Assembly: GCA_947307265.1 (NCBI GenBank)
Contig: CAMZIP010000001.1
Coordinates: forward strand, 1-55,837
Source: an uncultured Bacteroidales bacterium
Lineage (GTDB): Bacteria; Bacteroidota; Bacteroidia; Bacteroidales; UBA932
Reading direction: 5' to 3'
Length of the DNA stretch: 55,837 nucleotides
Of the stretch, positions 8,292 through 53,671 are shown piece after piece. Below the pieces are notes generated by a model, which was not told the origin of the DNA, did not search any database, and saw nothing but the letters and a program-made list of their open reading frames with translations. Every line of letters begins with the position of its first letter. The stretch's first letter is position 1. Position numbers and translations under genes: made by a program.

Positions 8292-9536
8292 ATGTATCTC
8301 TTTACATCAGAATCCGTTTCGGAAGGACACCCGGACAAGGTGGCCGACCAGATTTCAGACGCTATACTTGATGATTTCCTCCGCCAGGATGAAAATGCCC
8401 ACGTGGCCTGCGAGACGTTCGTCACCACGGGCCTCGTCCTGATTGGCGGCGAAGTAAGTTCGCGCGATGCGTGGGTGGACATCCAGAACGTCGCCCGCCG
8501 CACCATCCGCGAAATCGGCTACAACAAGGGCGAATACCGTTTCGACGCGGAATCCTGCTCGGTAATCTCCGCGCTGCACGAGCAGAGCGCCGATATTGCG
8601 CAGGGCGTGAACCGCGAAACCCTGCTGGAGCAGGGAGCCGGCGACCAGGGTATTATGTTCGGCTATGCCTGCAACGAGACCGAACAGTATATGCCGCTGG
8701 CGCTGATGCTTTCGCACCTGCTGCTCCAGGAACTTGCAGCCATCCGCAAGGAGAATCCCTCCCCTATGCCTTACCTGAGGCCCGATGCAAAGAGCCAGTT
8801 TACCATCGAATACGAGGATGACAGCACTCCCGTCCGCATCCACACCATAGTGGTTTCTACGCAGCACGACGAGGATGTCGAGCGCGAAAAGATCGAGGCC
8901 GACGTCCGCGCCATCCTGCTTCCGCGCCTGCTGAAAAAGCTTCCCGCACGCACGGCGGCGCTGTTCAAGGGGGATTACATACTGCACGTCAATCCTACAG
9001 GCAAGTTCGTCATCGGCGGCCCTCACGGTGATACCGGTCTTACCGGACGCAAGGTCATCGTGGATACCTACGGCGGCAATTCAGGTCACGGCGGCGGCGC
9101 ATTTTCAGGCAAGGACCCGAGCAAGGTTGACCGCAGCGCGGCGTACGCAGCCCGTCACATCGCCAAGAATATGGTCGCGGCAGGCGTTGCAGACCGCTTT
9201 ATGATTCAGTTGGCTTACGCAATAGGCGTTGCAAGCCCTGTGAGCGTTTTCGTCAACACTTTCGGCACGTCGCACTGCAATATGTCTGACGGACAGATTG
9301 CAGCACGCATCCGGGAACTGTTCGACCTGCGTCCGGCAGCCATCATCAAGCGCTACGGCCTTACCAACCCGATATACCGTCCGACGGCCGCATACGGCCA
9401 TTTCGGTCGCGAGCCTTTCGAGCAGGAAGTGACTCTTATCCGCAACGGAAAGGAAGTCCGCCGCAAGATTCAATTCTTCAGCTGGGAAAAACTGGACTGC
9501 ACCGATCTTTGCCGGAAGGAATTTCCGGGTAAATAA
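8292..9536 (+). CDS. metK: S-adenosylmethionine synthetase
   Basis: The 414-aa ORF opens [27 protein letters not shown] and contains [12 protein letters not shown] and [19 protein letters not shown], the canonical MetK motifs. Confidence 0.97.
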
Positions 9537-35082: not shown

Positions 35083-35156
35083 TGGTCCCTGCAGGGCATG
35101 ATCCTGCGACTCCCTGATTATGAGTCAGGTGCTCTAACCAACTGAGCTAAGGGACC
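35083..35156 (-). tRNA. tRNA with anticodon CAT; elongator type, most like tRNA-Ile2 (lysidine) but tRNA-Met cannot be excluded
   Basis: The reverse complement GGTCCCTTAGCTCAGTTGGTTAGAGCACCTGACTCATAATCAGGGAGTCGCAGGATCATGCCCTGCAGGGACCA folds as a 7/4/5/5-bp cloverleaf with the anticodon loop CTCATAA. The G1:C72 pair and the lack of a 3xGC anticodon stem argue against an initiator. The acceptor stem GGTCCCT (C4:G69, C5:G68) resembles E. coli ileX. No CCA is encoded. Confidence 0.9.
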
Positions 35157-38158: not shown

Positions 38159-38545
<387 letters not shown>

Positions 38546-38598: not shown

Positions 38599-38606
38599 CA
38601 AATTTA
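38599..38606 (-). promoter_or_regulatory. -7 box TAAATTTG for the str cluster (rpsL-rpsG-fusA-rpsJ-tRNA)
   Basis: Plus-strand caaattta is TAAATTTG on the minus strand, 53 nt upstream of the rpsL ATG. It is followed by the palindrome TTGCGG-a-CCGCAA. Confidence 0.45.
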
Positions 38607-38652: not shown

Positions 38653-40341
38653 TCAGCGCACAGAAAATGCGCTTCTGGCATATACGGGCTGACCGTCCGA
38701 AGTAAGGCCTTCGACCACTACTGTATAGTCCCCCGCAGCCTCCGGGAGACGGACGTCGATGGACACTGCTCCGCCCGCAGGCAGATCGACCATCGGATGC
38801 CAGTACACCGTGCGGCGGAAATCCGGCCAGAGCGAAGCATCCGGCAGCGAAGCGCCGGTATATGCGGCAGGATAACTGACGCCGCGGAACTTGAGCACGC
38901 GCACGCGGTCTCCGAACGTCATTGACGGCAGATTATGCTTATAGGTGGTGAAATCCACTATCCCGTCATAATACTCGGGGCCAATCTTGAACGAATTCGG
39001 GAAGATGCGTATCAGTTCGACCAGTTGCGGATCGTAGTTGTATAGGCGGCTATGGTCCGTGACCGGCACTCCGTCCAGCAGGAACAGCGATTCGCCGTTG
39101 CGGAACGAGACTTTGTTGTTGCGGCTTCCGCGACGTCCTACCTGGAGCCTGCGGCCGCCTTCACGCGCGCGTATTTCAAAGAGGTATTCGGTGAATACTT
39201 CGGCAAATGTCGGGAACCGGCGGTAATCATCCAGCCGGTAAAGAATGCTGCCCGAATCGTCAAAAAGCAGGTTGTTGCGCACCGGAATATACTCGTACAG
39301 CGTATCGGCGCTGAAATTGCGCTCTATCTGCACCGCAGCCGCCATTTCGGCCAAAGAAGCGGCCACTGACGGGCAAAGTTGCAGCGGAAGCGGAGCCTCG
39401 ACGCCGGTTGCGGCAAACGGACTTACGAGTTCCAGATGCCCCTTGAGAGTGGAATCCGGCGCCACCATTTCGCATACAAGATCCTTGTCGCCGTAGATAT
39501 TGTTGGTGAAGAATGCCACCGACCCGTCCTCTCCTATCGGGGACATATATATGTCGGAGCGGTTGCCTGGGGCCGAAATAATGGCCGTCTTGCCCACCCA
39601 TTCGCCGCGACGGGAAGGATCTGCACCCACGATATGGGCGCGTACCACCTCTCCCTCGTAATCCGGTATCACGTCCTGCGAAAAACCTTTGTTGCCTACT
39701 GCAGCGGCTGCTGAAATGAAGTCTGCGACAGTAGGATTTGCATTGTGGGCGATACCTTCCTCACGATATACCGAGACGGAAACAGAAGCGGCTGAAACGG
39801 CGTCGGAAACCAGTTGGAGCGGAACAACGGCCGAGGGCTGAACCTGCTGCGGCACCTCAACCTTCACTATTCCGGCCTCAACGGCCGGTGCAGGTGCGGA
39901 TTTATAATCTTCAGGCGCGACTGCCACCGCAAGTCCCCTTTCGCGGCTGAAAGGATTGAAGACAGATACGGTGCGGGAGGCGATGCCGTTATAATCGTAA
40001 GCGATTTCGGAGCGGTTCTGCGACGTATAGGCCACAAGCCGGTAATTGCCAGTAGGCAGATTGGAAGGGATATTCATATATCCGCAGCCTCGCCCGTCAA
40101 GCAGCGCAATCTTCGCGCCCTGGAGCATCTTCGTGCCGTCGTGCAGCTCAAGATAGAGCACGCTACTGACTGATGAAAGCTGCTTCGTATTGACATCGAG
40201 ACAGAAAGCCGAACACCAGATACGGTCACCCGTCACATAAATATCCTTGTCCGTGACCACGTATGCGCGCTCGACGACCCTGGCATTTGAAATCCAGGCG
40301 AAGCATACGCTGCAGAGCAATATGGCTAAAATACGTCTCAT
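38653..40341 (-). CDS. Secreted 562-aa protein with MG2 (alpha-2-macroglobulin)-like N- and C-terminal segments and a central plug-like segment; module A gene 4
   Basis: ORF 38653..40356 trimmed to the ATG at 40341 (MRRILAILLCSVCFAWISNA), which gives the same stop-N-ATG junction as the paralog at 46796. MG2-like N-terminus: YVVTDKDIYVTGDRIWCSAF...LYLELHDG...GRGCGYMNIPSNLPTGNYRLVAYT. Plug-like segment: LFLLDGVPVTDHSRLYNYDPQLVELIRIF. MG-like C-terminus: WPDFRRTVYWHPMVDLPAGGAVSIDVRLPEAAGDYTVVVEGLTSDG. Confidence 0.7.
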   Translation of the reverse strand: MRRILAILLCSVCFAWISNARVVERAYVVTDKDIYVTGDRIWCSAFCLDVNTKQLSSVSSVLYLELHDGTKMLQGAKIALLDGRGCGYMNIPSNLPTGNYRLVAYTSQNRSEIAYDYNGIASRTVSVFNPFSRERGLAVAVAPEDYKSAPAPAVEAGIVKVEVPQQVQPSAVVPLQLVSDAVSAASVSVSVYREEGIAHNANPTVADFISAAAAVGNKGFSQDVIPDYEGEVVRAHIVGADPSRRGEWVGKTAIISAPGNRSDIYMSPIGEDGSVAFFTNNIYGDKDLVCEMVAPDSTLKGHLELVSPFAATGVEAPLPLQLCPSVAASLAEMAAAVQIERNFSADTLYEYIPVRNNLLFDDSGSILYRLDDYRRFPTFAEVFTEYLFEIRAREGGRRLQVGRRGSRNNKVSFRNGESLFLLDGVPVTDHSRLYNYDPQLVELIRIFPNSFKIGPEYYDGIVDFTTYKHNLPSMTFGDRVRVLKFRGVSYPAAYTGASLPDASLWPDFRRTVYWHPMVDLPAGGAVSIDVRLPEAAGDYTVVVEGLTSDGQPVYARSAFSVR

Positions 40342-40342
40342 A

Positions 40343-41659
40343 CTATTTGTGGTCATTGGGCCAGTAGGATGGTTTGTTCTTGTTGCCGCCCCTCATCTGA
40401 CAGTCCACGCAGCGGCGCGGCATCCATTCATAATAGATAAACGGATCCGAGGTATCATCCCCCCTGTCAGTGGGGACATAAGGCCTGTAATCGAACCCGT
40501 AGTAATAACGGTGCCAATCGACCGGCATTGGCATTGATGATATATCGGTAACCGGGGTCTTGCGGTAAAATCCATCGCCGCTTACGAACCTGCGGCAGAT
40601 GGATACCGTGGAGGCATTGACGTAGCCGAGCACTATTTCGGTCTCATCATCGAGACTGAAGATATTGCCGTAACACTCCGAAGGCTGGGGCGAGAACAGG
40701 CCTCCGACATCGGTCGTATTGGATTTCAGCGCTTTCCAATATCTCCAGGCATCAGCGGAGAGTGACTCCTGTATCATATCGACGCAGTAGAGATAGGCGA
40801 TTTTCTGCGAAGTATTGTCCAGACCGTACAGTTCATACTGGCTCAGACGGTCCTCCGCAAGGCCTTCGCTGCTTGCCGTCATTATCGAACCCTGCGTGCC
40901 GGTATTCCAGCAGTAATAGGTATTCTCACCGTCCTGGTAGGCCAGGACTTCATTGGTGGAAGGATTATAATAATACTGCGCGTAAAGCTGGGCTGTGTAT
41001 TCCCAGCTCTCGCGGGCAAACCAGCGATAATAACGCGACGATGTCTCTCCGGAAGTATTCACGTTGAAATACATCATCGTCCTCTCATCGTTGATCTTTG
41101 TGCCGACGCTGTCAAGATGCGAAGTCCGCTGCACCTCCAGCCACTCGGAAGCATAGCGGAGCGTATCTCTCTTCAATACTTCCCAACCCTCCCATTCGTA
41201 AGTGTAATACTCGATGCGCAGGCGGCAGCGTACGTCAGGATTCAGATCGCGGGTATCTATTGCGCGGCTGTAACTGTCCAGGGCCATTTCGGTCAAAACC
41301 CTGTCCAGCGAATCCCCAGGCCGGGGTACAACAGGCGGATTCAATATATTCCACGAATTCCACGAAATATTCCACGAAGGGTATATGGTACCATCCTCTG
41401 CTTCGACATATACATCCCACAGACTCGATTCCATCCACCGGGTCCCGGTGCTTGTTGTATAATAATCACCGTTACTCTCCTGTCCTATATTCATCGAACG
41501 GCCAATCCTGAAAACCGACTGCATCCCGGCAAGGATGTCACCCTCTACGACCAGGAAAGAATCCTGGACATCCGGCAGCTCAGGCTCGTAATCATATACA
41601 CAGCCGAAAACCGTCAGGGAGGCTATCAGTAGGGATAATATGACCTGCGAACGCTTCAT
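40343..41659 (-). CDS. DUF4249-like lipoprotein; module A gene 3
   Basis: Opens MKRSQVILSLLIASLTVFGC (lipobox), then FLVVEGDILAG..., with the C-terminal motif CVDCQMRGGNKNKPSYWP. It sits directly downstream of a TonB-dependent receptor, which is the usual DUF4249 context. Confidence 0.65.
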   Translation of the reverse strand: MKRSQVILSLLIASLTVFGCVYDYEPELPDVQDSFLVVEGDILAGMQSVFRIGRSMNIGQESNGDYYTTSTGTRWMESSLWDVYVEAEDGTIYPSWNISWNSWNILNPPVVPRPGDSLDRVLTEMALDSYSRAIDTRDLNPDVRCRLRIEYYTYEWEGWEVLKRDTLRYASEWLEVQRTSHLDSVGTKINDERTMMYFNVNTSGETSSRYYRWFARESWEYTAQLYAQYYYNPSTNEVLAYQDGENTYYCWNTGTQGSIMTASSEGLAEDRLSQYELYGLDNTSQKIAYLYCVDMIQESLSADAWRYWKALKSNTTDVGGLFSPQPSECYGNIFSLDDETEIVLGYVNASTVSICRRFVSGDGFYRKTPVTDISSMPMPVDWHRYYYGFDYRPYVPTDRGDDTSDPFIYYEWMPRRCVDCQMRGGNKNKPSYWPNDHK

Positions 41660-44364
41660 CAGAATTCAAGATTGAAATTGATATAAGGAATCGGATATGC
41701 AAAGACGCTCATCATATGTCCCTTGATGACACCCCTGCTGTTGATATCGTAATATACCGAATAGGCATTGTGCCGTCCGGTGACGTTATATACGCCCATA
41801 GTAAATGAAAGGTGCGCCAGTTGGCGGAGATAGTGCCCCGGCTCCACGACCAGCGCAAGGTCCAGGCGGAAATAATCCGGGATGCGGTACGCATTGCGGT
41901 CGGAATACACCAGGCGGGTACCGCCGGCATACTCGTAAGTGCCTATCGGGAGCGTAACCGGGCGGCCTGTCGAATAATCTACGTTGGCCGAGATGCTGTA
42001 TCGGTGCGTAAATTTATAGTTGAGCACGGCCTTGAGTTCGTGCGGCTTGTCGTAGGAGGTACAATACCATTCCCCGCGGTTGATGGCCATCTTGCCGCGG
42101 TTTCCCATCTCCCGCTGCATCGAACGCGACCAGGTATATGAAACCCAGCCGTTAAGTTTGCCGAGCGTGCGGCGCATCATCAATTCCACGCCATAGGCGC
42201 GGCACTCCGTGGGTACAAGTTCGTCGGCCAGATTCTCATTCATAGCCAGACGTGCGCCGGGCATATAGTCCACGAAGTTGTTGACTCTCTTGTAATATAA
42301 TTCAAGCGAGAAATCTATCGGATTGGCACCTGCGGTCAGATACAGGCCGGTAGCCGCCTGCCAGCCGTTCTGCGGAGCAAGTTTACGGTCGGCAAGTTTC
42401 CAGGTATCGGTAGGCGAAATGTTGATGCTGTTGGAAATCTTGTGGATGTACTGGTGCATCGTATTGAATCCCGCCTTCCACGAGAAACGCGGCGTGAAGG
42501 ACATCTTGCCGGAAATGCGGATTTCCGGAGCGTGATAGAAGCTCCTGTCGTTAAGCGAACCGTACATCACGTAGCGGAGGCCCGCATCTACTGACAGCCT
42601 GCGCGTGATCTGCCATTCGTCGCTGACGTATGCAGCGGCCTCCAGACCGCGTTCCAGCGCAAGCGAACGGTCCTCGACTATTGACTCCTCGCCGAGCGGA
42701 TGGCGCGCGCCGGGCTGAAGCTGGTAGAGCACTCCAGAGCCGCCATAGGTCAGCGTATGCGATTCGCTGAGCGGCGACTTGATGGTCACCTTGGCGAACG
42801 GCTGGCTTATCTGAGTCTGGTAGGTATAAGCTGCTGCGGCATTGAACGTATCATCCACGCGGTAGCCGTACTCGTCATATCCTGCAGCGATAACCATCGA
42901 ACGCCCGCCGTCGAAATTGCTGCGCCACTTGAGGGAAACGTTCAGGTTGTCGTAGCGGTACGAAGTATCGTTGCTGAAGCCGAATTTGTCACGGGAAATA
43001 TAGCCGTAGGCGTGCAGGGAATGGTTGCGGCCGAACTTATGCGTAAGGCCGATATTCAGGTCGCGGAATGATGCACTGCCGTCGGTATATTGGAGATCGG
43101 GCGGCACGATGCCTTCGAACAGGTCATTGGGCCGCAGGCGCAGCATCCAGTCGCTGTAGGTGGTGCGGGCGCCGATGATGAATGTGGTATTCTCACTGCC
43201 TATAGGCCCCTCGAGGTGCAGGCGGCTGGTCAGCAGGCCTATGCCGAGCGAGCCGGAAAGTTTCTTGCCGTTGCCTTCGCGCGAACGGACCTCGAGCACC
43301 GAGGAAATGCGGCCGCCGTATTCGACGGGAATGGAACTCTTATACAGCTCGATATCGCTTACCACGTCGGGGTTGAATACCGACATCAGGCCGAACATAT
43401 GGCTCGGATTGTAGATAGTGCCGTTGTTGAACAGGATCAGGTTCTGGTCGGACGAGCCGCCTCGGACGTTGAAACCGTTTGAAACCTCACCCACCGACTT
43501 GACGCCCGGCAAGGTAAGCAGCACTTTCAGCACATCGGCTTCGCCAAATACTGCCGGAACGTTCTTGATGGCAGACATCCGGACGGTTTCGATACCCATC
43601 TTGGACGAACGGTGGCGTGCCATACTTTCAGCCGTAACCACGGCGCCCGTAAGCGTCAGCACGCGCTCTTTCATCTGAACGTCGAAATTGCCGTCATCCC
43701 AGACCTTCAGCATATAGCGGCCTTCCTCCATCGACCAGCCGTCGTAGCAGAGGATATTGTCTCCTACGGGCAATGAAATTTTATAGAAACCGGACGCGTC
43801 GGTCTGCGCATAAGCAGTACCGCGGTCGTCATATACCGAAATGCCGGCCAGCGGCTCGCCTGTCGCGGCATCCCGGACATATCCGCTGACTGAAGCCTTG
43901 CCGGAAGTGCGGGCGCCGATTTCGCCTATCTCGTATATCTTATTGGCAAACGTGGCCTGCTGCTCCTTTTCGCCGAAAATATCGGCCTGAACGTCGGCAA
44001 CCGGCTGCTGCTCCTGACGGTTTTCAAAAAATCCCGCCGGAAGCGAAGTTACCAGCGTGCGGCCATAGAGAACGATGTACAGGTCCCTGTATTCGCTGAT
44101 ACGATAGCCGTTTTCACGCAACTGACGGAACGCCTCCTGCATAAACTGCTCTTTCTCATCTGCATAGACAGTATATATCCGGCGGTCTTCACCACCGTGC
44201 ACCCAATATACCGGAACATTGTACTGCTCTCGCATATATGTCAGGAGCGAATCTATCTCCACCTTTGAGACGCCGGGCCGCACCTCGGCCTTCTTTCGCG
44301 GCGGAGCGGCAAATGCCTGGACTAGCGCCAGCATCAGGAAAAATATCAGCAGCACGCGTCTCAT
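41659..44364 (-). CDS. TonB-dependent receptor with an STN-like N-terminal extension, CarboxypepD_reg domain, plug and barrel; module A gene 2
   Basis: 901 aa with the signal peptide MRRVLLIFFLMLALVQAFA. It has an extension of about 110 aa (IDSLLTYMREQYNVPVYWV...FMQEAFRQLRENGYRISEYRDLYIVLYG), VSGYVRDAATGEPLAGISVYD...GFYKISLPVGDN, and a plug (VPAVFGEADVLKVLLTLPGVKSV...FNVRGGSSDQNLILFNNGTIYNPSHMFG...IELYKSSIPVEYGGRISSVLEV). It ends YINFNLEF. Confidence 0.85.
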   Translation of the reverse strand: MRRVLLIFFLMLALVQAFAAPPRKKAEVRPGVSKVEIDSLLTYMREQYNVPVYWVHGGEDRRIYTVYADEKEQFMQEAFRQLRENGYRISEYRDLYIVLYGRTLVTSLPAGFFENRQEQQPVADVQADIFGEKEQQATFANKIYEIGEIGARTSGKASVSGYVRDAATGEPLAGISVYDDRGTAYAQTDASGFYKISLPVGDNILCYDGWSMEEGRYMLKVWDDGNFDVQMKERVLTLTGAVVTAESMARHRSSKMGIETVRMSAIKNVPAVFGEADVLKVLLTLPGVKSVGEVSNGFNVRGGSSDQNLILFNNGTIYNPSHMFGLMSVFNPDVVSDIELYKSSIPVEYGGRISSVLEVRSREGNGKKLSGSLGIGLLTSRLHLEGPIGSENTTFIIGARTTYSDWMLRLRPNDLFEGIVPPDLQYTDGSASFRDLNIGLTHKFGRNHSLHAYGYISRDKFGFSNDTSYRYDNLNVSLKWRSNFDGGRSMVIAAGYDEYGYRVDDTFNAAAAYTYQTQISQPFAKVTIKSPLSESHTLTYGGSGVLYQLQPGARHPLGEESIVEDRSLALERGLEAAAYVSDEWQITRRLSVDAGLRYVMYGSLNDRSFYHAPEIRISGKMSFTPRFSWKAGFNTMHQYIHKISNSINISPTDTWKLADRKLAPQNGWQAATGLYLTAGANPIDFSLELYYKRVNNFVDYMPGARLAMNENLADELVPTECRAYGVELMMRRTLGKLNGWVSYTWSRSMQREMGNRGKMAINRGEWYCTSYDKPHELKAVLNYKFTHRYSISANVDYSTGRPVTLPIGTYEYAGGTRLVYSDRNAYRIPDYFRLDLALVVEPGHYLRQLAHLSFTMGVYNVTGRHNAYSVYYDINSRGVIKGHMMSVFAYPIPYINFNLEF

Positions 44365-45077
44365 TCCGCACCCTCCACATATCGCAACACGCGGAGCGCA
44401 TACTGCCCGATATTGAAATACTGGCCTTTTTCAAGTGCGGAGACATACTTGCGAATCTCCTTCTTGCGGTCTTTATAACACTTGAGGATATCCCCGCGGC
44501 GGCGCAACTGCTTTACCTCACCCGATGCGGAAACATAGTAATAGCGCACCTCCCGGATGAAAATATTCGCAATGCCGTAATGATACTGGCCATCATATCC
44601 GGCCTCGCTGCGGCGGCGTCCTTCAGGGTCCTCCCGAAGCGTCTTGGTCACCTGCATCAGCAGCTTGGCGCGACCGTCGAAAAGCACTTCGCAGAATCCG
44701 TCAGGCACCGCTTTGCCGTACGTACGGCGCGGATAGACGAATTTCCGGTCTCCGATAATGAAATACTCCACCTCATCGCGGTTGAGCAGCATCGCCTGAT
44801 GCCGGGACTGGGGACGGACGAGCACCTGATTGGCGTAAGCGTCGATATTGATCTGCACGTCGAAGTAATCCCGGCCGTTGTAGCGAATCATTCCGCTGCG
44901 AAAATCGGGAGACTCCCAGTATGGCGTGCCGTTGAACAGGAAATCATATCCCACATCGATGCGGCCGCGCCACAGAAGAGAAGCCTCTCCTGCTTCCTGC
45001 ATATACAGGCCGTAATCGTCCTGCGCCTGCGCTACAAGCGGAATCAACGACAACAATATCAGCAGAAGCCTTCGCAT
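44361..45077 (-). CDS. Secreted 238-aa protein of unknown function; module A gene 1
   Basis: Has the signal peptide MRRLLLILLSLIPLVAQAQ. It is clearly paralogous to 50678..51400 (shared motifs LLYRG/LLWRG, F.FNGT.YW..P.., YNG/H.DY, INIDA, LNRD.VE, G(D)RKFV, YY..A..G...Q.RRRGD.LK.YK). I do not recognise the family. Confidence 0.7.
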   Translation of the reverse strand: MRRLLLILLSLIPLVAQAQDDYGLYMQEAGEASLLWRGRIDVGYDFLFNGTPYWESPDFRSGMIRYNGRDYFDVQINIDAYANQVLVRPQSRHQAMLLNRDEVEYFIIGDRKFVYPRRTYGKAVPDGFCEVLFDGRAKLLMQVTKTLREDPEGRRRSEAGYDGQYHYGIANIFIREVRYYYVSASGEVKQLRRRGDILKCYKDRKKEIRKYVSALEKGQYFNIGQYALRVLRYVEGAE

Positions 45078-45095
45078 AGGTGCAAATATAAAAAA

Positions 45096-46796
45096 CTATT
45101 CCATTACGATGTCAATCTGCCGGCGGCAATATACGGGCCGTCCGTCCGAAGTAATACCTTCGACCACGATGGAATATCTTCCGGGGCGCAGAGGAGCGTG
45201 GAACTCCAGATGGGTGCCGCGGCCGGGAGCCATCTCCACCAGCGGATGCCATAGCGCCGTCTGCCTGTAATCTGGATATACCCCGTCAGAGGCTTCCAGC
45301 CCGGTACTGGCTGCAGGATAGAGCACGCCCTGGAAATCAATCACCCGCACATTGCCGCTGAAACGCATTGACGGCAGATTGCGTTTGTAAGTCACGAAAT
45401 TGACGATGCCGTCGAACTGTTTCGGCCCGACAACGTGGCAGAACGGATAGATATTGATGGACTCGACCAGCAACGGGTCGTAATTGTATATCTTGTCGTG
45501 ATCCGGAACGGGAACGCCGTCAAGCATTATGAGCGAACTTCCCTCCGAGAAACGGGAATCGACATCATTCTCACGCAGACGGACCTGAATATCGCGGCGG
45601 CCGCCGAGCATCCGGGCGCGGATTTCCGGAATAAACTCCACGAATACCTCGCGCATCAGCGGGAAACGGGTATAGTCATCCAGATGGTAAGTAATCCGGC
45701 CCGCTTCGTTGAAAAGCAAATTGTCTCGCACCGGAAGCCATTCGTAGAGCGTATCGGATGCAAAACGGCTTACCACCTGCATCGCACTTGAACGCGACTG
45801 GAGGTCTTCTGCCAGCGAAGGATGCAGCACAAGCGGTGCGGGAGCCTCAACCGCAGGCGTAACGAACGGAGAAACTATCTCAAGATGACAGGTAGATGTC
45901 GAGTCTATATCCTCGATCTCGCTCACCAGTTCTTTGCGGCCGAGGATGTTACCTGTATAGAAAACTGCCTGACCGAGACTGTCGATGACAGAGTAGTAAA
46001 CGTCAGATTTATTGCCCGGAGCGGCAATAAACGCAGTATTGCCGGCCAATTCTGCTATCTTGTCGGGCGCGATACCGGCGACGTGCGCGCGAATCACCTC
46101 TCCGTCATAATCAGGCATAAACGAGCCGGAGACGCCGGAGGTTATGGAACCTGATATTTCATCGAGAAATGCCTCTATAGTAGCGTTATCACGATGGGGA
46201 ACCGCATCTTCGCGGAATACCGAAACTGAAACCGAACCGCCCTCAGGAAGCAGCAGCGAAAGCGGAACAACCTCACCTGCAACTGCCTGTGAGGGATACT
46301 CCAACTGCAAAGAAGCAGATGAAGAAGGCACCACAGAAACGGCTACGGCATTCAAGTCATCCACGACCTTCACGCCGCCCTTGACACGTTCACGAGTGCG
46401 GGTATTGTACACGGAAATGGTCTTGGAACATACACCGTTCCAATCATATCCCTCCTCGTTCTTATTGAGCGAAGTATAAGCGATAAGCCTGTAACTGCCG
46501 GTAGGCAGATTTTTCGGCAGAGAGATAAAACCGGCGCCGCGGCCATCCATAAGGCCTATTTTCGCGGTAAGCGCAAGCCCTTCGGCACTGTGCAGTTCGA
46601 GGTAGGCGACGCTGCTCACGGTACTTGGACGACGGGTGGCGGCATCAAGACAGAAAGCCGAACAGCCGACTTGCTCGCCGGCCAGATAGACATCCCTGTC
46701 CGTGACTATGTAAGTGCGCTCGAACACGCCGGAAGCGGCGCGGGAGGGCACTGAAGCCAGCAAGAGAGAAGCGATTATAGTAACAACCAGGCGCAT
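45096..46796 (-). CDS. Secreted 566-aa MG2-like/plug-like protein; module B gene 4 (paralog of 38653..40341)
   Basis: Opens MRLVVTIIASLLLASVPSRAA and contains YIVTDRDVYLAGEQVGCSAF...YLELHSAEG...GRGAGFISLPKNLPTGSYRLIAYT, LIMLDGVPVPDHDKIYNYDPLLVESINIY, and YPDYRQTALWHPLVEMAPGRGTHLEFHAPLRPGRYSIVVEGITSDG. Confidence 0.7.
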   Translation of the reverse strand: MRLVVTIIASLLLASVPSRAASGVFERTYIVTDRDVYLAGEQVGCSAFCLDAATRRPSTVSSVAYLELHSAEGLALTAKIGLMDGRGAGFISLPKNLPTGSYRLIAYTSLNKNEEGYDWNGVCSKTISVYNTRTRERVKGGVKVVDDLNAVAVSVVPSSSASLQLEYPSQAVAGEVVPLSLLLPEGGSVSVSVFREDAVPHRDNATIEAFLDEISGSITSGVSGSFMPDYDGEVIRAHVAGIAPDKIAELAGNTAFIAAPGNKSDVYYSVIDSLGQAVFYTGNILGRKELVSEIEDIDSTSTCHLEIVSPFVTPAVEAPAPLVLHPSLAEDLQSRSSAMQVVSRFASDTLYEWLPVRDNLLFNEAGRITYHLDDYTRFPLMREVFVEFIPEIRARMLGGRRDIQVRLRENDVDSRFSEGSSLIMLDGVPVPDHDKIYNYDPLLVESINIYPFCHVVGPKQFDGIVNFVTYKRNLPSMRFSGNVRVIDFQGVLYPAASTGLEASDGVYPDYRQTALWHPLVEMAPGRGTHLEFHAPLRPGRYSIVVEGITSDGRPVYCRRQIDIVME

Positions 46797-46797
46797 A

Positions 46798-48033
46798 TCA
46801 AATGTCTATTGTAGGCCAGTCGGCAGGTTTACGTTTCGTACCGCCCTTGCTGCGGCAATCCACGCAGCGGTGAGGCAGCCAGGTATATTCGGCGACGCCG
46901 GAACCGTCATCAGGCTCTTCGCTCGGATCAGGTTCCTCTCCACCGTCAGGATCCGGCGGGAAATACATCCTGTACGGCCACCAGTCCAGTTCGTGATAAT
47001 ACTTGTTCCACTCATTCCTGCGGACAAGTTTGGGCACTTCGGGGAACCCCTCCGGAGCCACGTAGAACTGCGTAGCGTGATTGGGAATCATTATCCGGGC
47101 CTCGGACACCTGCGAAGCACTGATATAGCCTATCACGTATTCCGTGGTATCCTGCAGGTTATGGATATTGCCGCGAATCTCAGAAGGCTGCGGGGAGAAA
47201 AGACCGCCGACTTCCGAAGAATTGCGTGCTATATTGTTCCAGTAGCGCCAAGCATCTTCGGAAATGGACTCCTGGATCAGGGAAATCTTGTAGTAATACG
47301 AGATGCGCTCGTCGCGGCAGTTGATGCTCATCACGGGATAATCGACCAGACGGTCCTGCTCCATCTGCAGCGTAGAAGCTGTCATTATATCCGGGGCGCT
47401 GCGGCGCATCCAGCAATAATAGAAATTGGCCCCGTCGGCGAAATACGTCACCGAATCCGTTGCAGGATCGAAATACACCGTAGCCTGGAAATCAGCCTTG
47501 TACTCATATATTTCGCGGCCAATCCAGCGGTAATAGCCGCCGTCCGCGTCCCCGTGGGCCGAGACGCATATATCCATCCATTCCCGATCTTCGGAAATCT
47601 GATATGACAAGCTGTCAACCTGCGAGGTATGCAGGATATCCTGCCAGTCGCAGGCATAGGTCGAACCGTCGACGACCACCACCAGGCGGCACTGCTGCGA
47701 AACGTCCAGTTTTCGGGTATCTATCAGGTAATAAGCCTGCTCGGCATAATCGCCCGTTCCGGCTTCGACCTTGACTGCGTATTTGCGCTGGCCGTTCTTG
47801 CTCTCGACATAGACCGAAGCATCGATCAACGGCGGAAGGTCGGGTGTCGCGAGTGTCTGAGAGCCGGTCACCAGCACCACCGTCCAGTCTCCCGCGAGGA
47901 TATCACCCTCGATGGAGATGATTCCTCCTCCACCCTCGACCTTAGCCTCGAACGGATAGACGCACGAGACTGCCAGAAATGCTGCGAAAGCAGAAGCGAC
48001 CAATATCCGCAGGGTATGAACAATACTTCTCAT
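46798..48033 (-). CDS. DUF4249-like lipoprotein; module B gene 3
   Basis: Opens MRSIVHTLRILVASAFAAFLAVSC (lipobox), then ISIEGDILAGDWTVV, with the C-terminal CVDCRSKGGTKRKPADWP. It is paralogous to 40343..41659. Confidence 0.65.
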   Translation of the reverse strand: MRSIVHTLRILVASAFAAFLAVSCVYPFEAKVEGGGGIISIEGDILAGDWTVVLVTGSQTLATPDLPPLIDASVYVESKNGQRKYAVKVEAGTGDYAEQAYYLIDTRKLDVSQQCRLVVVVDGSTYACDWQDILHTSQVDSLSYQISEDREWMDICVSAHGDADGGYYRWIGREIYEYKADFQATVYFDPATDSVTYFADGANFYYCWMRRSAPDIMTASTLQMEQDRLVDYPVMSINCRDERISYYYKISLIQESISEDAWRYWNNIARNSSEVGGLFSPQPSEIRGNIHNLQDTTEYVIGYISASQVSEARIMIPNHATQFYVAPEGFPEVPKLVRRNEWNKYYHELDWWPYRMYFPPDPDGGEEPDPSEEPDDGSGVAEYTWLPHRCVDCRSKGGTKRKPADWPTIDI

Positions 48034-50681
48034 CGCAGTTTCAGGTTAAGGTTGACATAGGGAATCGGCGTTGCGAAAACGCTCATCATATAACTCTGGA
48101 CCGTATCGCCCTCCGTCCGATAGAATACCGAATAGGCGTTGCGGCGGCCTGTGACATTGTACACGCCGAAAGTCAGCGACATATGCGCGAACTGCTTCAG
48201 GTTATGGCCCGGCTCGATGATCATCGCCAGGTCGAGGCGGAAATAATCCGGTATGCGATAGCTGTTGCGGTCCGAGTACAGCAGGCGGTATGAGCCGCCG
48301 TAATAGTATTTTCCGACAGGAATGGTTACCGGACGGCCGGTAGAATAATCGAGGTTGGCCGAAATGCTGTAACGGTGCGTAAACTTATAATTGGCCACCA
48401 GTTTGAAATCGTGCGGCTTGTCATAAGAAGCATTGTACCAGCGGCCGCCGTTGATGGTTTCCACGCCGCGATCCTCCATCTCTCGCTGCATAGCACGGCT
48501 GTAGGTATATGAAACCCAGCCGTTGAGCTGACCGAGATTCTTGCGGGCCATCAGTTCGATACCGTACGAACGGCCGTAGGTCGGCACCAGTTCCGCTGCA
48601 AGATTGTCATTCATTTCAAGCACCGCGCCGCTTCGGAAATCCACGAAATCGCGCACGTGCTTGTAGTAAATCTCAGCCGAAAGATCCACCTGTCCGCCTG
48701 CAACCGTCGAATACCAGCCTGCAGCAGCCTGCCAGCCGGTCTGCGGCTTGATGGAGGCGTCACTCAGTTTCCAGGTATCGTTGGGCGATATGTTGATGCT
48801 GTTGGAAATCTTGTGAATGTACTGATGCATCGTGTTGAATCCGGCCTTGAGGGTGGTCGTCTCGCTGAGCGAATATTTGCCGGAAATGCGTACTTCCGGA
48901 GCGTGGTACATCTTCGTACCTCCTGTCAGCGAGATATAATTGCTGTAGCGCAGGCCTGCCTCGATCGAAAGAGCATCCGTGGCCTTCCATTCGTCGCTGA
49001 TATAGGCTGCGCTCTCCCAGGCATTTTCGCGCGTCAGGAAACGGGCTGCCACGAGGGACGAATCCCCGAGCGGCGTGCAGGAGCCCGGCTGCAGGTCATA
49101 ACGCACCGTCCCGACACCGTAGGTAACGGTATGACGGTCGCTGAGCAGCGTCTTGAACGTCGTGCGGACATAGAACTGACGGATACCTGAGGCCAGCGTG
49201 AAAGCAGAGGCGGCATTGCCAGAATCCTCCGTCTGGTAACCGTAATCGTCATATCCTGCAACCGTAACGGCAGAAGTGCGGTCCGAGAACTGTGCGCGCC
49301 ATTTGAGAGAAACGTTCAGGTCGCGGTAACGGTAGGTCGTATCGTTGCTGAAAGCAAACCGGTCGTAGGAGTAATATGCATACGCGTGCAGCGAATGGTT
49401 GCGTCCGATACGCTGTCCGATGCCGAAATTGATATCGTGGAAATGCGCGTTACCGTCGCTGTAGGCGCTGTTTTTAGGCAGCAGCTTAAGCATCCAGTCG
49501 CTGTAGGTGGTGCGGGCGCCGAGAATGAAGGTGGTATTTTCGCTGCCAAGCGGGCCCTCGAGATGCAGGCGGCTGGTCAGCAGGCCCACGCCGAGCGAAC
49601 CGGTAACTTTCTTGCTGTTGCCGTCGCGGCTGCGGACCTCCAGCACCGAAGATATGCGGCCGCCGTATTCGACGGGCATCGAACTCTTGTAAAGCTCCAC
49701 GTCGCTGATGACATCCGAATTGAATGCCGACAGCAGGCCGAACATATGCGTAGGATTGTAGATGGTGCCGTTGTTGAAGAGTATGAGGTTCTGGTCGGTG
49801 GAGCCGCCGCGCACGTTGAAGCCGCTGGAAATCTCGCCTACCGACTTGACGCCAGGCAGTGTCATAACCACTTTGAGGGCATCGCTTTCGCCGAATGTTA
49901 CAGGCACGTTCTTGATGGCCGAAATGCGGACCGTCTCGATGCCCATACGCGTCGAACGGTGCTGGCGCATACTTTCGGCTGTCACCACGGCTCCGGTCAG
50001 GGCCACGACCTTCTCCTTCAGCAGCACGTCCATCGCCCCGTCGTCATACACGCGCAGGTGATACTGCCTGTCTTCCATCGAAAAGCCGCTGAACTTTAGG
50101 ACATTGTCGCCGACCGGCAGAATTATCTTATACGCGCCGAATGCATCTGTCTGTGCAAACGCGCCTTTCTCGTCATAGACCGCCACGCCCGCTATCGGTT
50201 CGCCGGTAGCGGCATCCCGCACGAAACCCCGAACCGTTGCCTTGCCGCTCTTGCGGGCCGTAACCTCGCCTATTTCATAGATTTTGTTTTCAAATCCGGT
50301 AACAACCGTCTCATCTTCCAAGACCATCTTTTCTGCCGGAGCCGCTTCTGCGGCAAAATAACCCGCGGGCAGGTCGGAGACCATATCCGCGCCGCGATAG
50401 ATAAAATATCGGCCGTCCATCAGGTTGATGGAATAACGGTGCGAACGAAGTTGTGCGAAAGCCTCGTCTATAAATGCCTGGCCTTCGCCGTGAATCGTAT
50501 AGGAAGCCTTGTCGGTCGTGTCCGGCACGGCATAAACCTCCAGATGCAGCGAATCGCGGAGATATTGCACCACCTCCATCGCATCGGCCTTCGAGACACC
50601 GCGGCCCGACTGGGCGGCAGCACCCGGAGCGAAGAGCGCCAGAACGGCGGCGAAGGTGATTATATGACGCAAGTATCTCAT
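48030..50681 (-). CDS. TonB-dependent receptor with STN-like extension, CarboxypepD_reg, plug and barrel; module B gene 2
   Basis: 883 aa and colinear with 41659..44364. The plug region is nearly identical (VPVTFGESDALKVVMTLPGVKSV...FNVRGGSTDQNLILFNNGTIYNPTHMFG...VELYKSSMPVEYGGRISSVLEV). It ends YVNLNLKLR. Confidence 0.85.
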   Translation of the reverse strand: MRYLRHIITFAAVLALFAPGAAAQSGRGVSKADAMEVVQYLRDSLHLEVYAVPDTTDKASYTIHGEGQAFIDEAFAQLRSHRYSINLMDGRYFIYRGADMVSDLPAGYFAAEAAPAEKMVLEDETVVTGFENKIYEIGEVTARKSGKATVRGFVRDAATGEPIAGVAVYDEKGAFAQTDAFGAYKIILPVGDNVLKFSGFSMEDRQYHLRVYDDGAMDVLLKEKVVALTGAVVTAESMRQHRSTRMGIETVRISAIKNVPVTFGESDALKVVMTLPGVKSVGEISSGFNVRGGSTDQNLILFNNGTIYNPTHMFGLLSAFNSDVISDVELYKSSMPVEYGGRISSVLEVRSRDGNSKKVTGSLGVGLLTSRLHLEGPLGSENTTFILGARTTYSDWMLKLLPKNSAYSDGNAHFHDINFGIGQRIGRNHSLHAYAYYSYDRFAFSNDTTYRYRDLNVSLKWRAQFSDRTSAVTVAGYDDYGYQTEDSGNAASAFTLASGIRQFYVRTTFKTLLSDRHTVTYGVGTVRYDLQPGSCTPLGDSSLVAARFLTRENAWESAAYISDEWKATDALSIEAGLRYSNYISLTGGTKMYHAPEVRISGKYSLSETTTLKAGFNTMHQYIHKISNSINISPNDTWKLSDASIKPQTGWQAAAGWYSTVAGGQVDLSAEIYYKHVRDFVDFRSGAVLEMNDNLAAELVPTYGRSYGIELMARKNLGQLNGWVSYTYSRAMQREMEDRGVETINGGRWYNASYDKPHDFKLVANYKFTHRYSISANLDYSTGRPVTIPVGKYYYGGSYRLLYSDRNSYRIPDYFRLDLAMIIEPGHNLKQFAHMSLTFGVYNVTGRRNAYSVFYRTEGDTVQSYMMSVFATPIPYVNLNLKLR

Positions 50682-51400
50682 TCTCCGTATTCTACATAAC
50701 GCATAACGATGAGGATGAACTCCTCAAGGCCGATACTGTATTCAGTTTCTTCGGCACGGATTATCTTCTTAAGCGCGCTCCGATGCTCCTTGTAATGCTT
50801 CAGCAGGTCTCCGCGGCGGCGAATCTGGGTAATTTTGCCGTCTGCCGCCTCATAATAGAAAGTGACATTCGGCAGATATACGTCATACACGTTTCTCAGA
50901 ACGGCAGTACCCTTTTCTCCGGTATCCAGAAGGCGCTCATTTGTGACCGTCTCGAGACGTTTGACAACGTGCTTGTAGATGCGCGCGTGGCCGTCGAAAA
51001 TAATCTCATAATAACCCTCCGGCAGGATATCCGGAGCGAGAAAGGCGCCGTTGACGAACTTCCTGCCGTCCAGCGTCAGAGATTCGACATAATCGCGGTT
51101 GAGCATTACCTGCGCACCCTTCTGGGGCTCGATAACCAACGCCTGCTGACGCGCAGCGTCGATATTTATGGCATCGCACTGATAATCCTTATGGTTGTAA
51201 CGCACCGTTCCGGAATAATAGAGCGGCGTGTCCCAATAATACGTTCCGTTGAACTGAAACTTGTACGCGAGAGGCTTGCGGCCACGGTAGAGAAGCGATG
51301 AAGCCTGCGCAGAATCCCGGTAACGCATATAATCGGCATCCTGGGCGGCAGCATTTGCCACGCAGGCCGCCAGCATAAATATCAGCAGAAACCTTCTCAT
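50678..51400 (-). CDS. Secreted 240-aa protein of unknown function; module B gene 1 (paralog of 44361..45077)
   Basis: ORF 50678..51784 trimmed to the ATG at 51400 (MRRFLLIFMLAACVANAAAQ). The upstream 128 codons lie inside the MATE gene in another frame. Confidence 0.7.
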   Translation of the reverse strand: MRRFLLIFMLAACVANAAAQDADYMRYRDSAQASSLLYRGRKPLAYKFQFNGTYYWDTPLYYSGTVRYNHKDYQCDAINIDAARQQALVIEPQKGAQVMLNRDYVESLTLDGRKFVNGAFLAPDILPEGYYEIIFDGHARIYKHVVKRLETVTNERLLDTGEKGTAVLRNVYDVYLPNVTFYYEAADGKITQIRRRGDLLKHYKEHRSALKKIIRAEETEYSIGLEEFILIVMRYVEYGE

Positions 51401-52719
51401 TCTCCGGGAACGCGAATATAGATATTTTTTCGGTAAACCGCTGTCTGATAGATAGAACGGAATACCAAATGGCCGAAGTACGCTATATAGATGGACTGCA
51501 CTCCGAACTTGCCTGCCGTAGCCCAATAGAGCAGCAGGAATACTACCGCAGAACCGATGGTACAGTTGCGAAGCGCACGGGACGCGGTCGCACCGATATA
51601 GATACCGTCCCAGGTAAAAGCGATGCAACTCATTACCGGCATCAGCAGCAGCCAGAAGAGGAACGGTCCGCAGGCCTCTATTACCTCCTGATTGTCTGTA
51701 ATGATGCTTATCATCCAGCGCGGCAGGACTGCATACAGGACAGTTGAAACGACTGCAATCACCATACACCAGAAAAAGTTCCACCGCACGGTGGCTTTCA
51801 GGTTTTCTTTATCCTGCGCGCCGATATAACGGCCGGTCAGAGCCTCCCCCGCGTATGCAAATCCGTCCACGAAGTACGAATATAGCAGCAGCAGTTTCAT
51901 CATCACCGAACTGACTGCCAGTTGCGTATCTCCGAAACGGGCCGCCAGCGCAGTAAATCCGGTATAAACCACCAGAAGTGATATGGAGCGGACGAAAAGG
52001 TCTATATTGATCGAGAAGAATGATCGAATCTTCGCCCATCGGGCGCTCTGCCGTATGCTGGCGAGCCGCAGGATGCCTCGGTAACGGATCATTATCAGTG
52101 CAGATGCCAGTATCAGGCCGCTCCACTGAGCAATCAGCGTACCTGCAGCGACGCCGTTGATGCCCATCGGCGAATGGAATGCCAGCAGCCAGCTTGCGAT
52201 CATATTGACCACATTGACCCAGATATCCACCACCATCGCAAACACGGTATTCTGCATACCGATAAACCAGCCCTTGAATACAAACAGCGAAAGAGTTGCC
52301 GGAACCGCCCAGATGCGGATGAAGAAGTAATCCTTGGCGATAGCGGCCACCTCCGGCGTACAGTCGACCAGCATAAATGCCACCTTGACGTACAGCCATT
52401 GTATCAGCAGGCAGACCAAGGCCACCGACATTGCCGTCATTATGCCCTGCATAAAAGTCTCTGCAGCGCATTTCCAGTCCTTGCGGCCGTATGCCTGAGC
52501 CGTTATGCCGCCCGTCCCGACGCGCAGGAAACCCATATTCCAATAGAGCAGGTCGAACAGCATCGAACCGATGGCGATGCCGCCGATGCTCACCGCGTCT
52601 CCAAGATGACCGGAGATTGCCAGATCCACGATTCCCACCAACGGGACCGTGATGTTGGCAAGGATGCTCGGACCTGCAAGTCCGAGAATCTGGCGGTTGA
52701 TGGTGCCTGCTCTGCTCAT
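51397..52719 (-). CDS. MATE-family efflux transporter
   Basis: 440 aa and polytopic. The N-terminus INRQILGLAGPSILANITVPLVGIVDLAISGHLG and the segment GFLRVGTGGITAQAYG are typical of MATE (DinF/NorM-like) proteins. Confidence 0.88.
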   Translation of the reverse strand: MSRAGTINRQILGLAGPSILANITVPLVGIVDLAISGHLGDAVSIGGIAIGSMLFDLLYWNMGFLRVGTGGITAQAYGRKDWKCAAETFMQGIMTAMSVALVCLLIQWLYVKVAFMLVDCTPEVAAIAKDYFFIRIWAVPATLSLFVFKGWFIGMQNTVFAMVVDIWVNVVNMIASWLLAFHSPMGINGVAAGTLIAQWSGLILASALIMIRYRGILRLASIRQSARWAKIRSFFSINIDLFVRSISLLVVYTGFTALAARFGDTQLAVSSVMMKLLLLYSYFVDGFAYAGEALTGRYIGAQDKENLKATVRWNFFWCMVIAVVSTVLYAVLPRWMISIITDNQEVIEACGPFLFWLLLMPVMSCIAFTWDGIYIGATASRALRNCTIGSAVVFLLLYWATAGKFGVQSIYIAYFGHLVFRSIYQTAVYRKNIYIRVPGE

Positions 52720-53657
52720 CGGTACTTGGTCTCCTCCTCGAGCATTCCGAGGTATGAATTATACCGCTCCGCGGAAATTTCACCCGAATCCACCGCCTCC
52801 TTGACTGCGCAACCGGGTTCGTGAGTATGCGTGCAGGGCTTGAAGCGGCAGCGGTCCATTACCTGGAGCATCTCCGGGAAATAAGTGCTCAACTCTTCAG
52901 GCTCAATGTCCACCAGTCCGAAACCGCGGATACCGGGGGTATCTATCAGGAAACCGCCTCCGGAAAGAGGATGCATCTCGTAGAACGTAGTGGTATGCTT
53001 GCCCTGTTTGTTTGAAATCGAAATCTCGCCCGTACGGACCTTGAGGGTGGGATCGAGAGCCGAGATGAGGGAACTCTTGCCTACTCCGGAGACGCCGGAG
53101 AACAGCGAAACCTTGTCGCGGCACATCTCGCGGATGTTGTCGATGCCTTCGCCCGTAAGCGCGGAAATGGTCAGCACCTGATAGCCTGCGCGAGTGTAAA
53201 TATCTTCCCAGTAGCGGCATTCCGCCGTTTGGTATTCATCGTAGATATCGATCTTGTTGATGACAATCACCGGATGCACCTGATATGCCTCGCAGGTTAT
53301 CAGGAAGCGGTCCACGAAGGCAGGTTTAATCTCCGGGAGAGCCACCGTTATGACCAGGAACACCCGGTCGAGGTTGGCTGCGATGACGTGCGACTGGCGC
53401 GAGAGATTTGCCGAACGGCGAATGATGCAGTTGGTGCGGGGCAGAATGCGTTCGATGGTCCCCATCGGCTCCGGCTCGTCCCAGTCGATGACATATTCGA
53501 CACGGTCTCCGACTGCGACGGGATTGGTGGCCTGCGAAGCATCGAGCCGCACACGCCCCTTAATCACCGCGGGAATGAGTTCCCAGCGGGGAAGTTCCGA
53601 CAGCAGATAATGGCTGCCGGTATGCTTGACAACAGTCGCTGTTCCGTGTTGCTTCAT
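52716..53657 (-). CDS. rsgA: Ribosome small-subunit-dependent GTPase A
   Basis: 313 aa with an OB-fold N-terminus, a circularly permuted GTPase (VINKIDI...FSGVSGVGKSSLISAL...LIDTPG) and a C-terminal zinc knuckle (CRFKPCTHTHEPGCAV). Confidence 0.92.
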   Translation of the reverse strand: MKQHGTATVVKHTGSHYLLSELPRWELIPAVIKGRVRLDASQATNPVAVGDRVEYVIDWDEPEPMGTIERILPRTNCIIRRSANLSRQSHVIAANLDRVFLVITVALPEIKPAFVDRFLITCEAYQVHPVIVINKIDIYDEYQTAECRYWEDIYTRAGYQVLTISALTGEGIDNIREMCRDKVSLFSGVSGVGKSSLISALDPTLKVRTGEISISNKQGKHTTTFYEMHPLSGGGFLIDTPGIRGFGLVDIEPEELSTYFPEMLQVMDRCRFKPCTHTHEPGCAVKEAVDSGEISAERYNSYLGMLEEETKYR

Positions 53658-53663
53658 ATCCTA

Positions 53664-53671
53664 CAAAGTTA
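53664..53671 (-). promoter_or_regulatory. -7 box TAACTTTG for rsgA and the downstream co-directional genes
   Basis: Plus-strand caaagtta is TAACTTTG on the minus strand, 6 nt from the ATG at 53657. Confidence 0.4.

Follow-up and report, generated by a model that had tools for sequence, protein, structure and literature searches.

Tandem four-gene modules with a TonB-dependent transporter and a DUF4249 lipoprotein in an uncultured Bacteroidales bacterium

Two four-gene units between a MATE efflux gene and rpsL

An uncultured Bacteroidales bacterium of the UBA932 lineage (GenBank assembly GCA_947307265.1, contig CAMZIP010000001.1) carries two adjacent copies of a four-gene module that is built around a TonB-dependent transporter. 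The window analysed here is the whole stretch of 55,837 nucleotides (nt) at positions 1 to 55,837 of that contig. Eight co-directional open reading frames (ORFs) on the minus strand are flanked by a MATE efflux gene (51397-52719) and by rpsL (38159-38545), and they make up unit B (51400-45096) and unit A (45077-38653), 18 nt apart, exactly where an initial annotation made from the sequence had placed them (Table 1). We call the protein of about 240 amino acids (aa) F1, the transporter F2, the DUF4249 lipoprotein F3 and the protein of about 565 aa F4; genes a1-a4 belong to unit A and b1-b4 to unit B, with the numbers 1-4 corresponding to F1-F4.

Table 1. Genes of the two units and the spacer between them, with positions in the window.
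Feature	Position	Strand	Description
b1	50678..51400	-	F1 family, 240 aa from the ATG at 51400, type-I-like signal peptide; no Pfam/NCBIfam family
b2	48030..50681	-	TonB-dependent transporter, 883 aa
b3	46798..48033	-	DUF4249 lipoprotein, 411 aa, lipobox AVS/C (slash, cleavage site)
b4	45096..46796	-	F4 family, 566 aa, type-I-like signal peptide, macroglobulin-like beta-sandwich array
Spacer between units	45078..45095	-	18 nt, TTTTTTATATTTGCACCT, containing TATATTTG
a1	44361..45077	-	F1 family, 238 aa, type-I-like signal peptide
a2	41659..44364	-	TonB-dependent transporter, 901 aa, architecture as b2
a3	40343..41659	-	DUF4249 lipoprotein, 438 aa, lipobox VFG/C (slash, cleavage site)
a4	38653..40356	-	F4 family, 567 aa from the first ATG; N-terminal MG2, further beta-sandwiches, one long helix

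The genes of each unit had been described as joined by ATGA or TGATG overlaps or by a single-nucleotide gap. This is true of the ATGA overlaps at b1/b2, b2/b3 and a1/a2, of TGATG at a2/a3 and of the 1-nt gap at b3/b4, but not of a3/a4 if the first ATG of a4 is used, in which case the two genes overlap by 14 nt. The second ATG of a4 (M6, MRRILAIL..., at 40341; 562 aa) lies 1 nt past the stop codon of a3 and is the more likely start, because the resulting gap matches the b3/b4 junction of unit B. The mechanical ORF of b1 extends further upstream, to a GTG at 51784. All four proteins of each unit bear export signals, as had been noted: reading of the N-termini by eye, rather than with a predictor, indicated type-I-like signal peptides in a1, b1, a2, b2, a4 and b4 and lipoboxes in a3 and b3.

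Corresponding genes of the two units are paralogues, with similarities far beyond chance. The identities amounted to 40% for a1/b1 (E = 6e-49), 60% for a2/b2 (E = 0), 46% for a4/b4 (E = 0) and, for a3/b3, 38% (E = 2e-72) in an alignment of the C-terminal 318 residues, the N-terminal third of the lipoproteins being not alignable. The uneven conservation between the copies that had been reported was also apparent within the receptors, where identity was 33% in the signal peptide and N-terminal domain, 66% in CarboxypepD_reg, 80% in Plug and 62% in the barrel. A plug that is more conserved than the other parts is ordinary for TonB-dependent transporters. The identical DNA run of 34 nt in the receptor genes (43142-43175 and 49489-49522) is exact, and it is the longest run common to both units.

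Profile searches gave the families that were expected for the receptors and the lipoproteins, in both units. The transporters matched CarbopepD_reg_2, Plug (PF07715; 31.3 bits for a2 and 30.4 for b2, cut-off 23.9) and TonB_dep_Rec_b-barrel (PF00593; 61.4 and 82.7 bits, cut-off 27), and the lipoproteins matched DUF4249 (PF14054; 85.9 bits for a3 and 100.2 for b3, cut-off 28.5). The parts of F2 follow each other in the order signal peptide, STN-like N-terminal domain, CarboxypepD_reg, a TonB-box-like GAVVTAES, Plug and barrel. The putative box was found by inspection only: L.GAVVTAES stands between CarboxypepD_reg and Plug, its L238, G240 and A241 do not vary among six orthologues, and by eye it can be likened to DEVVVTG, the TonB box of Bt1763 (PMC7782687). 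A stretch of about 40 residues in both receptors also matched PF25183 (OMP_b-brl_4). Only a2 gave any score with the SusC/RagA model TIGR04056, namely 28.3 bits where the cut-off is 368, whereas b2 did not match at all; the two are not SusC-type receptors.

A conserved four-gene set and its F1-receptor fusions

Relatives of the transporter were collected by aligning six receptors and scanning one genome per GTDB species, which returned at least 579 relatives. The best 80 of these, kept as 79 loci (L numbers), form the sample on which the locus counts rest, and profiles made from the four paralogue pairs of the window were run against all ORFs of the 79 loci. F1, F2, F3 and F4 were all present at 65 of the 67 receptor copies in other genomes that were assessable, i.e. 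that had enough flanking DNA. The exceptions were L029, with an unrelated transporter, and L067, with a weak F1 match. The usual gene order is F1-F2-F3-F4; two loci have a changed order and keep the set (L008 6544-12849, F1-F2-F4-F3; L010 3321-9746, F3-F1-F2-F4). The carriers include many uncultured Bacteroidales, Prevotellaceae, Muribaculaceae, Parabacteroides, Tannerella and Dysgonomonas, as well as Chitinophagaceae (Puia, Niastella, Paraflavitalea) and Mucilaginibacter. Searches started in the reverse direction, from F4, also located homologues of the 565-aa protein in the four-gene module, and two distant F1 homologues, one of them from marine sediment, likewise lay inside it.

Clustering of the 1344 flanking ORFs of the 79 loci revealed no fifth conserved gene, and these flanks held no conserved sigma/anti-sigma pair, TonB/ExbBD or inner-membrane transporter. 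There is also no extracytoplasmic function (ECF) sigma or FecR-type anti-sigma gene beside the units of the window. The only recurring neighbours were rpsL, rpsG and fusA, at about 10 loci. These findings showed that F1-F2-F3-F4 is a conserved unit in Bacteroidota. The initial annotation had held the four genes to be one unit, an idea that would fail if homologues of the 240-aa and 565-aa proteins were not syntenic with receptor/DUF4249 pairs in other genomes. They are syntenic, and the co-occurrence, the lack of a fifth gene and the fusions described below all support the unit.

Two variations in gene content and position were seen beside this. In a marine-sediment metagenome-assembled genome (MAG; L086/L087), an additional DUF4249 gene (6587-7846) precedes F1, so that two DUF4249 genes surround one receptor. 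In about 10 Bacteroidales loci (among them L001 5239-11686 and L003/L004 5456-11731) the module is found directly upstream of rpsL-rpsG-fusA, as in the window; this position is not conserved in other lineages and we found no functional reason for it.

The F1 proteins a1 and b1 belong to no Pfam or NCBIfam family, and a Pfam scan of 59 F1 members gave no family either, FecR included. A word-index search with a1 found only 2 proteins; the family became visible by exhaustive profile search, which yielded 1634 cluster representatives at E <= 1e-3. Where F1 and F4 homologues are named in the sources, they are called 'hypothetical protein'. The structural model of a1 (predicted local distance difference test, pLDDT, 72; predicted template modelling score, pTM, 0.67) has a confident beta-rich core at about residues 55-192 and two C-terminal helices, whereas the conserved stretch 20-53 was modelled at low confidence. 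A PDB sequence search with a1 found nothing meaningful. We considered the possibility that F1 has a FecR-like fold. Neither Foldseek (best E = 0.05) nor the scan of the 59 members supported this idea, and it was abandoned.

Fifteen loci have the F1 sequence joined in frame to the N-terminus of the receptor. The fused ORFs measure about 1020-1250 aa, and in them an N-terminal match to the F1 profile is followed by one to the receptor profile that runs from about position 105. Gene-called fusions of 960-1048 aa (P0139, P0194, P0234, P0238) show the same layout, with CarboxypepD_reg and Plug downstream of F1. Alignment indicated that the fusions consist of a signal peptide, F1, a linker, a conserved LPxxYF motif and the rest of the receptor; those of P0234 and P0139 keep F1 through its C-terminal helices and its RYVE-like end. 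Absent from the fusions are the receptor's own signal peptide and its N-terminal domain of about 80 residues. The STN-like domain was retained in none of the 15 fused receptors, as compared with 48 of the 52 unfused ones. In a neighbour-joining tree of the receptors, the fusions formed one large clade plus a separate branch comprising L079 and the upstream copy of L005. The latter locus (L005 1-11671; also L006) is a mixed tandem, in which the upstream module has a fused F1-receptor of 1045 aa and the downstream module a separate F1.

The designation of the missing domain as STN-like, also made in the initial annotation, is borne out by orthologues. The N-terminal domains of the window receptors themselves have no match to STN (PF07660), being too diverged to score. 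Receptor N-terminal domains are homologous across the loci, and the label holds because three orthologous domains pass the Pfam threshold of 28.4 bits (L085, 34.7; L081, 29.7; L084, 29.6), with L067 at 25.9; by this transitive homology the window copies are best described as STN-like. Some orthologous domains also scored weakly against FecR_C. When a profile of the N-terminal domain was compared with the PDB, only spurious matches to de novo designs appeared.

N-terminal extensions and STN domains of TonB-dependent receptors lie in the periplasm, and in TonB-dependent transducers it is the STN domain that serves signalling (PMC7782687). As whatever precedes the plug of a TonB-dependent receptor is periplasmic, the fused F1 is periplasmic too, and the free F1 presumably is as well. 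The 240-aa protein had been termed secreted; in view of the N-terminal fusions, it is better read as periplasmic. Lipobox-like signals were seen in only 12 of 147 F1 members and 3 of 120 F4 members, type-I signal peptides being nearly universal in both families, and Pfam/NCBIfam scans revealed no type IX secretion tail domain in the F1 and F4 proteins of the window. The STN domain is lost exactly where F1 is covalently attached, which suggests that its normal role is to tether F1. Furthermore, the low identity between the two copies of F1 (40%) and of the STN region (33%), as opposed to 80% for the plug, would fit co-diverging cognate interfaces.

The 565-aa protein had been called both MG2-like and plug-like. 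The first part of this description stands for a4, which scored 39.1 bits with MG2 (cut-off 32.8), but b4 fell short of the cut-off with 28.4 bits; in the F4 family, 41 of 44 members matched MG2 at E <= 0.01. The second part has to be discarded. As to the 'plug-like' stretch (LLDGVPV...), the C-terminal part of the protein taken by itself scored 16 bits with Pfam Plug (E = 0.018; cut-off 23.9), only 2 of 44 family members reached E <= 0.01, and profile-profile comparison with the receptors (hhalign) gave a probability of 0.5%. The model of a4 was confident (pLDDT 88, pTM 0.87), and Foldseek related it to the macroglobulin-domain (MG) arrays of alpha2-macroglobulins, complement C3/C4/C5, TEP1, bacterial ECAM and Salmonella A2M, with E-values of 1e-10 to 1e-8. 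Pfam scans of F4 showed neither a thioester nor a bait-region or receptor-binding domain, no C-x-E-Q motif was seen, and a PDB sequence search with a4 found nothing meaningful. Its type-I signal peptides and the lack of a type IX secretion tail make F4 probably periplasmic. F4 homologues of Mucilaginibacter and Chitinophagaceae are longer (about 800 aa, some 230 aa more than in Bacteroidales; L084 13971-16346, L085 13860-16277, L080 13739-16162), and no additional Pfam domain was detected in these longer forms.

As to F3, the receptor and the DUF4249 lipoprotein are adjacent and share a strand in a manner conserved across genera. A C-terminal motif, W..RCVDC(R/Q)..GG.K.KP..WP, which contains a CxxC pair and lies outside the Pfam DUF4249 model, is strongly conserved (a3 residues ~412-435, window ~40355-40430, and the equivalent part of b3), and a further invariant cysteine is found at position 250 of a3. 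These cysteines could form a disulfide or a metal site. A PDB search with a3 returned nothing meaningful, and one with a profile of the DUF4249 family gave only spurious de-novo-design matches.

The receptor tree also bears on the history of the tandem. The closest genome found among the loci is L007, an uncultured rumen Bacteroidia MAG, which has the same tandem pair and a receptor that is 91% identical. In the tree, b2 and its L007 orthologue are sister to a group that comprises the single copy of L001, a2 and the L007 orthologue of a2. L001 carries a single module, in the same place between MATE and rpsL. Since copy A clusters with this lone copy and not with copy B, the duplication appears to predate the split from this single-copy relative, unless rate differences mislead the tree. 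Together with identities of 38-60% between the pairs, this agrees with the old duplication proposed initially, and the specificity diversification that was proposed along with it would be a reasonable, if tentative, reading of the conservation pattern. An assembly artefact was considered as well and is ruled out by the 38-60% identity and by the presence of the same pair in L007. Tandem doubles have arisen independently in L005, L022, L027, L040, L071 and L082. A triple tandem is present in L021 (1-15525), and L027 has two of its three receptor lineages.

Proposed placement and roles of the four proteins

We propose, with a probability of about 60%, that the products of each unit make up a TonB-dependent transport apparatus of the outer membrane with four components. 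F2, with its Plug, its barrel and the TonB-box-like GAVVTAES after CarboxypepD_reg, would be the energised channel. F3 would be an extracellular lid or ligand-capturing partner of F2, by analogy with BT2172/BT2173. F1 would be a soluble periplasmic protein held at the N-terminus of the receptor by the STN-like domain, which would thus serve here as a docking site for F1 and not for an anti-sigma factor. F4 would be a second non-lipoprotein component, probably periplasmic, which receives, holds or processes the imported ligand. The tandem units would be old paralogues, most likely for different but related ligands. A broader version of this proposal is that of a widespread machine, in which STN was repurposed to recruit F1, F4 receives the cargo of an import line for a ligand class new to TonB transport, and tandem paralogues owe their mutual insulation to F1/STN interfaces that diverged together; this remains a tentative extension, which we consider possible but rather doubtful.

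The closest published system is the receptor/DUF4249 pair BT2172/BT2173 of Bacteroides thetaiotaomicron, for which cofitness was found and AlphaFold-Multimer put the lipoprotein on the outer face of the receptor (Price et al. 2023, bioRxiv 10.1101/2023.03.17.533168). The pair was proposed to be a putative receptor and lid, and no substrate was given (bioRxiv 10.1101/2023.03.17.533168). It is a conserved operon across dozens of genera (PMC11003636, fast.genomics), and a 2025 evolution preprint reports persistent BT2172 mutations in mice. This literature agrees with the earlier statement that the pairing is known but functionally uncharacterised. Full-text literature searches found the receptor/DUF4249 pair only, with no 240-aa or 565-aa partners and no characterised four-gene system. 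Like the units described here, BT2172/BT2173 has a non-SusC TonB-dependent transporter immediately upstream of a co-directional DUF4249 lipoprotein, is restricted to Bacteroidota and has no known substrate; unlike them, it is described as a two-gene pair, whereas here there are four genes, one of which is sometimes fused to the receptor. The module is best described as an uncharacterised version, with four components, of a TonB-dependent transporter with a putative lid.

Other systems share single features with it. SusC/SusD (RagA/RagB) of Bacteroidota also combine a CarboxypepD_reg-like domain, placed ahead of the plug and the TonB box (here putative), with an adjacent surface-lipoprotein gene, but here the partner is DUF4249 instead of SusD, the TIGR04056 score is 28 bits at a cut-off of 368, and the unit has two extra exported proteins. 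In FecA/FecR/FecI transducers, too, the receptor has an N-terminal periplasmic STN, which there binds a partner protein. In contrast, no sigma/anti-sigma gene is linked to our module, and the candidate partner F1 is soluble, lacks a FecR match and can replace STN by fusion. Bacterial alpha2-macroglobulins (ECAM/YfhM, Salmonella A2M) resemble F4 by MG2, by the Foldseek match of their MG arrays (E ~1e-9) and by export to the envelope. They differ from it in size (~1600 versus ~565 aa), and F4 has no thioester, bait or receptor-binding domain, is not a lipoprotein and matches with TM-scores of 0.14-0.24. The genomic partner of the bacterial alpha2-macroglobulins is a penicillin-binding protein; that of F4 is the transporter.

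Several observations weigh against the transport apparatus as we propose it. The residues after the lipobox cysteine of F3 (CVYDYEPE, CVYPFEAK) are only weakly acidic, which makes surface exposure uncertain. The receptors are very distant from all solved TonB-dependent transporters, only the CarboxypepD_reg part matching a PDB chain, and the macroglobulin likeness of F4 is domain-wise only and gives no function. The fold of F1, from a moderately confident model, has no relative in the PDB by Foldseek. There was no Bacteroides species, hence no BT2172, among the best 80 genome hits, and a2 and b2 are at most putative orthologues of BT2172. Finally, neither the 1344 flanking ORFs nor Rfam gave a clue to a substrate, a regulator or a riboswitch.

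We considered the possibility that the module is a cell-surface signalling device, in which a ligand signal would pass via STN and F1 to a regulator encoded elsewhere, transport being secondary. STN is the signalling module of TonB-dependent transducers (PMC7782687), the N-terminal domain is STN by transitive homology here, and some of its orthologues are weakly FecR_C-like. Yet the flanks of the module in the 79 loci show no conserved regulator, be it an ECF sigma, an anti-sigma or another one. F1, whose signal peptide is cleavable and which lacks a membrane anchor, cannot span the inner membrane, and neither the 59 members nor the model link it to FecR or to a fold in the PDB. A covalent fusion that deletes STN is more in keeping with a structural subunit than with a relay that is to be released, and the order STN then CarboxypepD_reg is the opposite of that in SusC-type transducers (PMC7782687). 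We therefore regard signalling as unlikely. The barrel might instead work outward or have a structural function, as a TonB-dependent exporter or as an envelope assembly or tethering complex for which F1 or F4 is cargo or scaffold; Myxococcus Oar is the reported comparison for such barrels. Two of the four components are indeed exported non-lipoproteins without a recognised enzymatic or binding domain, no inner-membrane importer is linked, both receptors have the short PF25183 match, and the module lies beside the housekeeping genes rpsL-rpsG-fusA in 10 loci. However, an F1 fused to the periplasmic end of the receptor cannot be exported cargo, the PF25183 match covers only about 40 residues, the rpsL-adjacent position is confined to a few lineages, and the published cofitness and lid model of the related pair favour uptake, which makes an outward or structural role distinctly improbable.

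Two further explanations concern the copies and the flanking genes. Both units might handle the same ligand, with divergence driven by dosage or by pressure from phage, bacteriocins or host immunity on surface parts. Recurrent tandem duplication (six doubles, one triple) is compatible with this, as is the fact that the lipoprotein, with 38% identity and an N-terminal third that cannot be aligned, is among the most diverged parts. But the presumably periplasmic F1 and the STN region have diverged at least as much as the surface parts, so that surface selection alone is insufficient, and 40-60% identity goes far beyond any need for dosage. We find this explanation unlikely. F1 and F4 might also be mere neighbours, functionally unrelated to the receptor/DUF4249 pair, since neither has a recognised transport-linked domain. 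This seems highly improbable: across orders, 65 of the 67 receptor copies have the four families together, loci with a changed gene order retain all of them, stop and start codons overlap, and 15 loci have F1 joined to the receptor. The fusions and the co-occurrence effectively refute the idea. The four-component transport apparatus is thus the explanation that we prefer.

Bacteroidota dominate the gut and many soil communities, and TonB-dependent transporters underlie much of that success. To our knowledge, apart from SusCD and a handful of systems for vitamins, haem and siderophores, neither partners nor substrates are known for most non-SusC transporters. The main interest of the present findings is for outer-membrane transport in Bacteroidota: a published two-gene association becomes a defined four-gene unit with about 1600 F1 clusters in several orders, and a natural fusion provides the likely topology of F1 and points to a non-signalling role of the STN domain. 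The outcome is a concrete, testable model of protein placement and binding partners, and cultivable carriers exist (Parabacteroides hominis, Mucilaginibacter aquatilis).

Transcription context and neighbouring features

rsgA (52716-53657) and the MATE gene overlap by 4 nt, and the stop codon of the latter overlaps the ATG of b1 (ATGA). rsgA, MATE, unit B and unit A thus form an uninterrupted co-directional string on the minus strand that runs into rpsL-rpsG-fusA. Because of the overlap between MATE and b1, unit B may be read through from rsgA-MATE. Intergenic matches to the Bacteroidetes -7 motif TAnnTTTG on the minus strand are located at 53664-53671 (upstream of rsgA), at 45083-45090 and at 38599-38606 (upstream of rpsL). 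The second of these, TATATTTG, falls in the 18-nt spacer before a1 and is a motif match only; the window-wide count of TAnnTTTG (22) is not above chance (shuffle mean 17.4), and the argument is positional only. Scans for sigma-70 promoters (15 promoter-like sites, shuffled mean 13.3) and for terminators (23 terminator-like sites, shuffled mean 14.3, standard deviation 4.1) gave no convincing site between the genes, and Rfam revealed no riboswitch near the modules in the window and in four diverse loci.

Elsewhere in the window, a tRNA gene (35083-35156, minus strand; Rfam 66.6 bits) lies downstream of fusA. A long-loop SAM-II riboswitch (57 bits; 8163-8222, plus strand) lies directly upstream of metK (8292-9536, plus strand), and a TAnnTTTG (8153-8160) immediately precedes the riboswitch; the arrangement resembles that of a usual metK leader.

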